Shown in pieces: positions 16,250-17,952 of a stretch of DNA of 64,000 nt. Both the position numbers and the translations under genes were made by a program. Below the pieces are notes generated by a model, which made no database searches, was not told where the DNA came from, and saw only the letters and a list, made by a program, of their open reading frames with translations. Numbering within the stretch: the stretch's first letter is position 1; each line of letters starts with the position of its first letter. This DNA comes from Escherichia coli (GTDB lineage: Bacteria; Pseudomonadota; Gammaproteobacteria; Enterobacterales; Enterobacteriaceae), in NCBI RefSeq assembly GCF_003018115.1, contig NZ_CP027457.1, one strand, 5' to 3'.

Positions 16250-16954
16250 TTATTTTTTAGAGTAATCACGCGCACCAAAAATTGCAGTGCCGATACGAAC
16301 CATCGTGCTACCTGCCGCAATGGCGGCTTCCATATCGTCCGACATTCCCAGAGAGAGCGTGTCGATATGCGGGTAGCGCGTTTTCAGTCCGGCAAATGCT
16401 ACAGCCATTTGGCGTGCAACTTCAAACTGCCTTACATATTCTGACTCAGGCGCAGGGATTGCCATCAGCCCGCGCAGACGTAAACGCGGTAGTTCAGCGA
16501 CCGCTGCTGCCAGCTCGTCCAGTTCTGCCAGTTGAATCCCGGACTTACTGTTTTCATCACTAATATTAATTTGAATCAGCACGTTAAGAGGGGGAAGTTC
16601 TGCCGGGCGCTGATCGTTGAGGCGGGTAGCGATGCGCAAACGGTCGATGGTATGACACCAGTCGAAATGCTCTGCCACCAGGCGGCTTTTATTAGACTGC
16701 AACGGGCCAATAAAATGCCATTCTAATCCTGTTACGCCCAGTTCCTGAAAGTGGCGAATTTTATCTACCCCTTCCTGAACGTAGTTTTCACCAAATTGAC
16801 GCTGCCCGGCATCAATGGCTTCTGCGATGGCGCTCGCAGGTTTTGTTTTACTGACTGCAAGCAGCGTAATTTCTTCTGGAGAACGGCCGCAACGCGTTGC
16901 AGCCGCTGAGATTTTGTCCCGGACCTGTGCCAGGTTATGCGCAATATCGTTCAT
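16250..16954 (-). CDS. yggS: PLP homeostasis protein YggS (COG0325)
   Basis: 234 aa, TIM-barrel PLP-binding family (LLAVSKTKP). Confidence 0.94.
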   Translation of the reverse strand: MNDIAHNLAQVRDKISAAATRCGRSPEEITLLAVSKTKPASAIAEAIDAGQRQFGENYVQEGVDKIRHFQELGVTGLEWHFIGPLQSNKSRLVAEHFDWCHTIDRLRIATRLNDQRPAELPPLNVLIQINISDENSKSGIQLAELDELAAAVAELPRLRLRGLMAIPAPESEYVRQFEVARQMAVAFAGLKTRYPHIDTLSLGMSDDMEAAIAAGSTMVRIGTAIFGARDYSKK

Positions 16955-16971
16955 TTTCCGAGGATCTTAGT

Positions 16972-17952
16972 ATGAATATGGAAGAAATTGTGGCCCTTAG
17001 TGTAAAGCATAACGTCTCGGATCTACACCTGTGCAGCGCCTGGCCCGCACGATGGCGCATTCGCGGGCTAATGGAAGCTGCGCCGTTTGATGCGCCGGAC
17101 GTCGAAGAGCTACTGCGGGAGTGGCTGGATGACGATCAGCGGGCAATATTGCTGGAGAATGGTCAGCTGGATTTTGCCGTGTCGCTGACGAAAAACCAGC
17201 GATTGCGTGGCAGTGCGTTCGCGCAACGGCAAGGTATTTCTCTGGCGTTACGGCTGTTACCTTCGCACTGCCCGCAGCTCGAACAGCTTGGCACACCACA
17301 GATATTGCCGGAGTTACTCAAGAGCGAGAATGGCTTGATTCTGGTGACGGGGGCGACGGGGTGTGGCAAATCTACCACGCTGGCGGCGATGGTTGGTTAT
17401 CTCAATCAACATGCTGATGCGCATATTCTGACGCTGGAAGATCCTGTGGAATATCTCTATGCCAGCCAGCGATGTTTGATCCAGCAGCGGGAAATCGGTT
17501 TGCATTGTATGACGTTCGCATCGGGATTGCGGGCCGCATTGCGGGAAGATCCTGATGTGATTTTGCTCGGAGAGCTGCGTGACAGCGAGACAATCCGTCT
17601 GGCACTGACGGCGGCAGAAACCGGGCATTTGGTGCTGGCAACATTACATACGCGTGGTGCCGCGCAGGCAGTTGAGCGACTGGTGGATTCATTTCCGGCG
17701 CAGGAAAAAGACCCCGTGCGTAATCAACTGGCAGGTAGTTTACGGGCAGTGCTGTCACAAAAGCTGGAAGTGGATAAACAGGAAGGACGCGTGGCGCTAT
17801 TTGAATTGCTGATTAACACACCCGCGGTGGGGAATTTGATTCGCGAAGGGAAAACCCACCAGTTACCGCATGTTATTCAAACCGGGCAGCAGGTGGGGAT
17901 GATAACGTTTCAGCAGAGTTATCAGCAGCGGGTGGGGGAAGGGCGTTTGTGA
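16972..17952 (+). CDS. yggR: PilT-like type IV pilus retraction ATPase homologue YggR
   Basis: ORF 16897..17952; start set at MNMEEIVALSV (326 aa) with AGGA RBS; Walker A GATGCGKST. Confidence 0.9.
   Translation: MNMEEIVALSVKHNVSDLHLCSAWPARWRIRGLMEAAPFDAPDVEELLREWLDDDQRAILLENGQLDFAVSLTKNQRLRGSAFAQRQGISLALRLLPSHCPQLEQLGTPQILPELLKSENGLILVTGATGCGKSTTLAAMVGYLNQHADAHILTLEDPVEYLYASQRCLIQQREIGLHCMTFASGLRAALREDPDVILLGELRDSETIRLALTAAETGHLVLATLHTRGAAQAVERLVDSFPAQEKDPVRNQLAGSLRAVLSQKLEVDKQEGRVALFELLINTPAVGNLIREGKTHQLPHVIQTGQQVGMITFQQSYQQRVGEGRL

Follow-up and report, generated by a model that had tools for sequence, protein, structure and literature searches.

We analysed a 64,000-nucleotide stretch of Escherichia coli DNA (contig NZ_CP027457.1, the window throughout), in which the genes yggS and yggR stand head to head. 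yggS is the first gene of the yggS-yggT-yggU-rdgB-hemW operon and encodes a pyridoxal 5'-phosphate (PLP) homeostasis protein, yggR encodes a pilus ATPase of the PilT/PilU family (Table 1). The start codons, CAT at 16952-16954 (yggS, the reverse complement of ATG) and ATG at 16972-16974 (yggR), are separated by 17 bp, as an earlier note on this DNA had pointed out, and this is borne out by the window sequence and by the RefSeq annotation, where the same gap is found in the identical strain F9792 and in K-12 MG1655 (yggR 3094100-3095080, minus strand; yggS 3095098-3095802, plus strand). Positions 16200-18000 share 100% identity with several O169:H41-type strains and 95-99% identity with most of 5,426 complete genomes. 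Both products are full-length family matches above the curated NCBIfam cut-off, YggS to the YggS family profile TIGR00044 (347.5 bits, cut-off 106.25; residues 1-229 on profile positions 1-229) and YggR to the PilT/PilU type IVa profile pilT_fam, TIGR01420 (464.3 bits, cut-off 319.1; residues 2-325 on profile positions 1-328). Five codons 5' of the yggS ATG its frame is closed by a TAA, with no start codon between, which makes a more upstream yggS start impossible, and the GAGGA Shine-Dalgarno sequence of yggR is kept in nearly all of 29 enterobacterial rows (the exceptions being a Cedecea, L028, and an Enterobacter, L031). The earlier note had allowed for a mis-annotated start; the TAA upstream of yggS, the GAGGA of yggR and profile alignments running from the first position speak against this, and the support for both start codons is robust. 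The 17 bp divergent arrangement is in itself ordinary and already present in public annotation.

The spacing is strongly conserved. We retrieved 30 enterobacterial loci with YggR, both starts being readable in 27 (at locus L011 the gap was counted after dropping a spurious upstream ATG), and the gap was 17 bp in 25 of these, from Escherichia, Citrobacter, Salmonella, Leclercia and Enterobacter, with 16 bp in a Klebsiella metagenome-assembled genome (MAG) and 14 bp in Cedecea. Metagenomic relatives with YggR identities of 61% and 51% had gaps of 15 and 14 bp, and a high-GC metagenomic relative, with a YggR ~50% identical and an upstream gene 51% identical to YggS, had a gap of 33 bp. The maintenance of this spacing across enterobacteria and metagenomic relatives implies that the head-to-head pair is old and has been kept; distant PilT representatives (P0151, P0140) occurred in other genomic contexts and were uninformative for the pair. 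The gaps of eight divergent pairs sampled from annotated stretches, too few for a firm estimate of rarity, were 17, 37, 55, 119, 129, 160, 218 and 277 bp, that of yggS-yggR being the shortest. yggR is under purifying selection, with a mean pairwise difference of 0.18 at the amino-acid level vs. 0.45 at synonymous sites. An unbroken gene of 981 nt was present in 28 of the 30 loci, or in 29 of 31 open reading frames (ORFs) when the window and K-12 are counted. The two interrupted ORFs, with premature stops (315 and 135 nt), are those of Leclercia adecarboxylata NCTC13032 (L029) and C. amalonaticus AUH_CA_2023_1 (L032), and shorter YggR variants of 302-313 aa (P0009, P0016, P0008, P0012) were found in Shigella flexneri, S. 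boydii and some E. coli. These cases may reflect decay in particular lineages or, for the two interrupted ORFs, faulty assembly.

Transcription of the yggS operon has been mapped in MG1655 by SMRT-Cappable-seq (single-molecule real-time sequencing of capped transcripts), which lists an operon b2951-b2952-b2953-b2954-b2955 with a transcription start site (TSS) at NC_000913.3 3,095,060 on the forward strand and a termination site at 3,098,536, marked as the 'same' as in RegulonDB (PMC6131387). Transferred to the window, the TSS falls 38 nt 5' of the yggS ATG and 21 nt within yggR, giving a 5' untranslated region (UTR) of 16955-16992 and placing the yggS promoter inside yggR codons 7-19. The 38 nt leader is complementary to the beginning of yggR, from its ribosome-binding site and start codon through codon seven. 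AGTGTA, the complement of the yggS -10, is also kept in the relatives at 61% and 51% identity, whilst TGTAGA was assigned as the -35 because of the mapped TSS only, its score in our position weight matrix (PWM) lying within the chance range (the promoter scores 5.0-6.3 bits, values that chance reaches 8-15 times per kb). The best minus-strand PWM match, TTTACA-N17-TTCCAT, differs from this TSS-supported promoter and all scores are at chance level, so that sequence-based promoter prediction is unreliable at this locus. With the yggS TSS located on the far (right-hand) side of the yggR start codon, the units run across each other instead of apart, and on the yggS side they are overlapping divergent units. 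The earlier note held that both promoters have to lie within the opposite gene; for yggS this is thereby upheld, and for yggR it follows from geometry. Two other arrangements were rejected, a back-to-back bidirectional promoter with non-overlapping RNAs, given a yggS TSS at 16992 to the right of the yggR start at 16972, and a leaderless yggS mRNA from TAAGAT (16964-16969), a hexamer that varies among genera, the mapped TSS being 38 nt upstream of the start codon. The yggS TSS is already in public data.

For yggR (b2950), no transcript was present among the operons listed in the SMRT-Cappable-seq tables, which cover RNAs >1 kb selected from cultures in M9-glucose minimal or rich medium (PMC6131387), and no yggR TSS was found in Kim 2012, in EDL933 Cappable-seq or in the listed entries of the Cappable-seq GTF annotation file. 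The absence of a b2950 transcript fits silence of yggR without being proof of it, and the earlier note's suggestion that yggR is largely silent is in keeping with the data for long RNAs from glucose and rich media. Some limits follow from geometry: given the 17 bp gap and a Shine-Dalgarno sequence that must be in the mRNA, yggR transcription has to start left of 16960, and would then overlap the yggS RNA by at least ~33 nt. The predicted yggR leader shows no unusual folding (z = -0.01), and an Rfam search of 16200-17400 returned no match. A 51-codon plus-strand ORF antisense to yggS (16815-16970) ends in a TAG 1 nt before the yggR ATG; we rejected it as a leader peptide, as its stop is not kept in Citrobacter and transcription from the predicted start would leave out its ATG, and it is probably fortuitous.

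Table 1 Features of the yggS-yggR locus (positions are those of the window).
Feature	Position	Strand	Description	Location or basis
yggS coding sequence	16250-16954	minus	234 aa, PLP homeostasis protein	ORF list, RefSeq, TIGR00044
yggR coding sequence	16972-17952	plus	326 aa, PilT/PilU-family type IVa pilus ATPase	ORF list, RefSeq, TIGR01420
Spacer between yggS and yggR starts	16955-16971		17 bp, TTTCCGAGGATCTTAGT	left part TTTCCGAGGAT conserved; last 6 bp vary among genera
Near-invariant block across both starts	16815-17035		221 bp; holds palindrome, TAATTT, GAGGA and yggS promoter	column conservation in 29 sequences
CRP-type site	16820-16841		22 bp, ttcTGCGAtggcgcTCGCAggt; core 16823-16838; C6/G17	yggS codons 39-45; centre -141.5 bp from yggR ATG
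Candidate yggR -10, TAATTT	16867-16872	plus	TAACTT/TAACGT in other genera	predicted TSS ~16879, 5' UTR ~93 nt
yggR Shine-Dalgarno, GAGGA	16960-16964	plus	7 nt 5' of ATG	
yggS-hemW TSS	16992	minus	K-12 3,095,060 transferred to window	yggR codon 7
yggS promoter -10, TACACT	16999-17004	minus	ends 7 nt before TSS	yggR codons 10-11
yggS promoter -35-like, TGTAGA	17022-17027	minus	3/6 consensus; 17 nt spacer	yggR codons 17-19
Internal promoter for yggT-hemW	16390-16425	minus	TTGAAG 16420-16425, 18 nt spacer, TAGCAT 16396-16401, TSS 16390	within yggS

The coding sequence of yggS contains, upstream of yggR, a sequence resembling a CRP site, the core of which (TGCGATGGCGCTCGCA) is a perfect TGCGA-N6-TCGCA palindrome matching at all ten core bases. 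It is the only perfect one in the 64 kb window, where 0.18 were expected by shuffling, whilst half-site frequencies give an expectation of 0.05 per window and 3.5e-5 in the relevant 46 bp interval. TGCGA-N6-TCGCA is the core found in CRP sites that control competence genes and depend on the co-activator Sxy (CRP-S sites), for which C6/G17 (TGCGA rather than TGTGA) is diagnostic. C6/G17 was retained in all 30 enterobacterial loci, as were no fewer than nine of the ten core bases and one or both half-sites in perfect form; both halves were perfect in all Escherichia, and one half was one base off in most Citrobacter and the Klebsiella MAG (TTCGA) and in Cedecea and L033 (CCGCA). Downstream of the palindrome lies the candidate -10 hexamer TAATTT, of which T1, A2 and T6 are kept in the 30 loci and which reaches a PWM score of only 5.7. 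Relatives at 50-51% identity lack both the TGCGA palindrome and the TAAYTT hexamer, which implies that the yggS-pilT synteny is older than the candidate CRP-S element.

We compared the position of the palindrome with that of sites upstream of known competence genes, by scanning the 300 bp upstream of eight K-12 competence-regulon genes for perfect half-sites. In the literature reached, Sxy dependence is shown directly for only ppdD, yrfD (hofM) and sxy among the eight, the other E. coli genes being presumed counterparts of H. influenzae competence genes. The scan retrieved the published sxy site (half-sites TGCGA and TTCCG), which validates the approach. Six of the eight promoters contained exactly one perfect half-site with its centre 129.5-167.5 bp before the ATG (ppdD -136.5, sxy -136.5, ybaV -140.5, ycaI -129.5, yhgH -145.5 and smf -167.5), a result with a binomial probability of 5e-6 by chance, and the yggR site, centred at -141.5, falls within the same range. 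The resemblance extends downstream: in ycaI a TAAATT begins 29 nt after TCGCA, as TAATTT does in yggR, and the TAAATT of sxy and TAAAAA of ppdD begin one base earlier, with sequence shared between ycaI (cgtTAAATTCTTCTG) and yggR (cgTAATTTCTTCTG). Prediction from motif alone has a precedent in sbmC, the Sxy dependence of which was correctly predicted in this way.

Both genes also carry an unusual pattern of synonymous conservation. Pairwise comparison of 29 yggR and 28 yggS sequences gave a synonymous difference of 0.09-0.15 in yggR codons 1-20 (gene mean 0.45) and of 0.04-0.07 in yggS codons 1-15 (gene mean 0.34), with further dips in yggS at codons 36-45 and 166-185. As a control, six neighbouring genes (rdgB, yggU, yggT, ruvX, yqgE and gshB) were examined in a 27-genome alignment of 6 kb. 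Runs of at least five codons with zero synonymous differences occurred five times in all, in yggS at codons 5-9, 25-29 and 39-45 and in yggR at codons 1-5 and 9-13, and in none of the six control genes. The longest, yggS 39-45 (7 codons), coincides with the palindrome, the yggS 25-29 run holds the candidate TAATTT, and the yggR 9-13 run (16996-17010) holds the mapped yggS -10. The runs and dips cover two mapped promoters, the yggS promoter and the internal promoter within yggS described below, and the synonymous signal thus marks real promoters at this locus. At the level of the species, the near-invariant block of 221 bp (Table 1) was at least 99% identical in 5,425 of 5,426 complete E. coli genomes, the surrounding 1.8 kb being 95-99% identical in 5,400 records.

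Taken together, we consider it somewhat probable that a conditional, CRP(-Sxy)-dependent yggR promoter within yggS faces a constitutive yggS promoter. The locus would then consist of two facing promoters, each buried in the first codons of the other gene. The housekeeping yggS-hemW operon is transcribed from 16992 by the weak-looking TGTAGA-N17-TACACT, and yggR, which appears to be the only homologue of a PilT-type retraction ATPase in the type IV pilus/DNA-uptake machinery of E. coli, would be transcribed from an activator-dependent promoter made up of the CRP-S-type site and TAATTT. Without cyclic AMP (cAMP)-CRP, and probably without Sxy, this promoter would be off, leaving yggR silent in laboratory cultures; a switchable promoter of the CRP/Sxy type would thus explain why yggR is normally silent. 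The choice posed in the earlier note, between overlapping transcription and a yggR with little promoter of its own, is on this evidence probably a false one, the sequence suggesting an activator-dependent promoter inside yggS. As to its details, we see an about even prospect that cAMP-CRP, alone or together with Sxy, drives yggR transcription from a start near 16879, with a predicted leader of ~93 nt and an overlap of ~114 bp. Upon induction the two units would converge over these ~114 bp (16879-16992), yggS transcription crossing the yggR promoter and yggR transcription entering the yggS promoter, with mRNA 5' ends complementary to one another. That RNA polymerase passage and the complementary 5' ends lead to mutual interference is possible, though doubtful, and an internal promoter at 16390 may buffer the expression of yggT-hemW.

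Several observations weigh against a CRP-dependent promoter of this kind. The control genes show that low synonymous divergence at the 5' end is not peculiar to the pair, as synonymous divergence in codons 1-20, relative to the remaining codons, is 0.25 in yggR and 0.38 in yggS, but also 0.30 in yqgE and 0.32 in gshB; 5'-end conservation alone is therefore no proof of embedded promoters, and we discarded it as such. Palindromes with one mismatch were at chance frequency in the window (3 found vs. 4.5 expected), a consensus sigma-70 scan of 16200-18200 gave no matches, and our own PWM scan of the locus gave chance-level scores only. E. coli CRP-S sites are normally asymmetric, with one TGCGA half and one poor half, and the yggR site lacks this asymmetry. 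A reporter engineered to carry TGCGA in both halves showed high activity whether or not Sxy was present, so that the Escherichia yggR site may be CRP-dependent without Sxy, or may not be CRP-S-like. In most Citrobacter and in the Klebsiella MAG the TTCGA half changes YggS (A44E) and loses a G contacted by CRP. The predicted yggR TSS puts the CRP centre near -48, outside the classical positions of class I and class II activation, and a V. cholerae CRP-S site predicted from its motif, with its centre at -44.5, failed functional tests when mutated. Neither yggS nor yggR is in the lists of CRP targets from genomic SELEX (systematic evolution of ligands by exponential enrichment), an absence of little weight either way, as ppdD and hofM themselves appear there in gene lists of ambiguous meaning. 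Finally, no paper in the literature searched, which did not extend to the 2009 Sxy microarray, ties yggR or pilT to CRP-S or Sxy.

These points sharpen the principal alternative, which we consider rather unlikely, namely that yggR has no functional promoter of its own and is a silent or decaying remnant, the conserved block serving the promoter, leader, translation start and PLP-lysine region of yggS. The palindrome would then be a coding by-product of the peptide P-A-S-A-I-A. In favour of this view are the missing yggR transcript among the operons listed, the lack of a consensus promoter in either scan, the truncated YggR of Shigella and some E. coli and the interrupted ORFs, the 5' suppression seen in yqgE and gshB as well, and the replacement of G16824 through an amino-acid change in many Citrobacter. 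It sits poorly, however, with a yggR that is intact in nearly all loci and whose amino-acid divergence is well under its synonymous divergence, and with a Shine-Dalgarno sequence and start codon that are conserved in most genera. Nor does a coding by-product readily explain the five codon choices of the palindrome, whose joint probability given the peptide is ~0.002 (our estimate on rough E. coli codon-usage figures), their invariance across genera, or the positional match to the scanned competence promoters. In yqgE (18531-19094) and gshB (19203-20153), the 5' suppression may reflect a translation-initiation constraint or further embedded signals.

A further possibility is a weak constitutive yggR promoter close to the start codon, within yggS codons 1-15, with a short leader and an overlap of a few tens of bases, leaving the palindrome irrelevant. 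The zero-synonymous run at yggS 5-9 (16928-16942) and the strong conservation of 16910-16965 would fit this, as would weak PWM matches (GTGCCA-N17-TTCATT, score 6.0, and TTGTCC-N16-TATGCG), yet such matches are at chance level (8-15 per kb), the best of them would start transcription at ~16962, within the Shine-Dalgarno sequence, the conservation is equally explained by constraints on yggS translation initiation, and no yggR transcript was seen in growing cells; we therefore regard it as highly unlikely. Less likely still is that the palindrome and the following T-run (16821-16850, plus strand) act as an RNA hairpin or intrinsic terminator, which would stop antisense transcription or attenuate a longer yggR leader. 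A terminator scan did flag TCTGCGATGGCGCTCGCAGG followed by TTTTGTTTTA on the plus strand, and the hairpin folds at -8.9 kcal/mol, but this stability is unremarkable (z = -0.45, with 63 of 200 shuffles folding at least equally well). Each of the natural variants G16824T and T16834C disrupts a stem pair that no second change restores, the T-run consists of the codons for a conserved S-K-T-K motif and in most genera is broken up (TTTGGTTTT, TTTCGTTTT), and there is neither an Rfam match nor an evident plus-strand promoter upstream. A conditional, CRP-dependent promoter remains the reading that we favour.

E. coli has a full set of type IV pilus/DNA-uptake genes that is silent in the laboratory and is switched on by Sxy and CRP. 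If true, a CRP-S-type promoter would place the PilT-like ATPase yggR in this programme, a membership that the literature searched does not address. A candidate CRP-S promoter for a PilT homologue seems not to have been described before in the literature reached, and is a modest lead. In its strongest form, the proposal would make yggR an unrecognised member of the CRP-Sxy competence regulon that supplies the retraction motor so far missing for the PpdD/Hof DNA-uptake pilus, with a promoter in the codons around the PLP-binding lysine of yggS and the pair acting as an interference switch, a combination that we judge improbable. Were it to hold, transcription of yggS would contribute to silencing the pilus motor, and yggS would drop for a time whenever the motor is induced. 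The locus is also a clean example of regulatory signals that are legible within coding sequence, as both mapped promoters, the one in yggR and the one in yggS, coincide with lost synonymous variation. Should the CRP-S interpretation fail, the locus would be reduced to a closely spaced divergent pair of ordinary kind, one that public annotation already contains.

Other features of the region and its surroundings deserve mention. The yggT-yggU-rdgB-hemW genes are transcribed independently of yggS from the internal promoter at 16390, which corresponds to K-12 3,095,662, the TSS of an operon b2952-b2955 flagged as 'novel' (PMC6131387), and which overlaps the dip in synonymous rate at yggS codons 166-185. 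The YggR of the window is 97% identical to that of K-12, and one of the 10 differences is a Cys for Ser at residue 131 (17362-17364) in the Walker A motif (GATGCGKST vs. GATGSGKST in K-12). A 79 bp fragment identical to 16957-17035, at the start of yggR, is present on a 243 kb E. coli plasmid (NZ_CP194962.1, 147078-147156), annotated as a type II secretion system/type IV pilus (T2SS/T4P) ATPase; ISEcp1-blaCMY-2 insertions adjoining chromosomal yggR have been described (e.g. PMC6061673) and could be the cause of such a mobilisation of a yggR fragment onto a plasmid. Further away, at ~10502-13337, three TRAP (tripartite ATP-independent periplasmic) transporter genes lie between hemW and yggM, which directly follows hemW in K-12, and look like an accessory insertion.

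Among known systems, the closest in kind are the E. coli CRP-S promoters (sxy, ppdD, hofM, ycaI, ybaV, yhgH and smf). The candidate yggR promoter resembles these in its 22 bp C6/G17 site, in a perfect TCGCA half preceded by GC-rich spacer bases, in the T-rich DNA that follows the site and a TAAWWW hexamer ~28-29 nt downstream, and in that yggR belongs to the type IV pilus/DNA-uptake machinery. It is unlike them in being double-perfect, as published sites pair TGCGA with a degenerate half, and in lying wholly within an essential-looking part of the yggS coding sequence. The latter has parallels, however. In K-12, the competence gene yhgH (a comF homologue) starts 37 bp from the divergent housekeeping gene bioH (locus L041, 2346-2382), and the only perfect TGCGA half-site of yhgH, at -145.5, lies within bioH, though this gap is twice as long as that of yggS-yggR. 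In H. influenzae the CRP-S site of comA-E overlaps the upstream ORF, again a competence CRP-S site within a neighbouring coding sequence, as is proposed here for yggR, whereas the genes and family are different and H. influenzae has no pilT.

As for the facing promoters, the nearest comparison is pR/pL of coliphage 186, where both starts and the interference between them were reportedly measured by Callen, Shearwin and Egan in 2004. The two systems would share facing promoters with a short overlap (~114 bp here, if the predicted yggR start is right), one of them strong or constitutive, its partner weak or conditional; in contrast to 186, only the yggS start has been mapped here and interference is proposed. 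The gene pair itself recurs in other Proteobacteria, as PA0394-pilT of P. aeruginosa presumably has the same divergent yggS-pilT synteny, and the metagenomic relatives (50-61% identity) carry the same two genes head to head with gaps of 14-33 bp.

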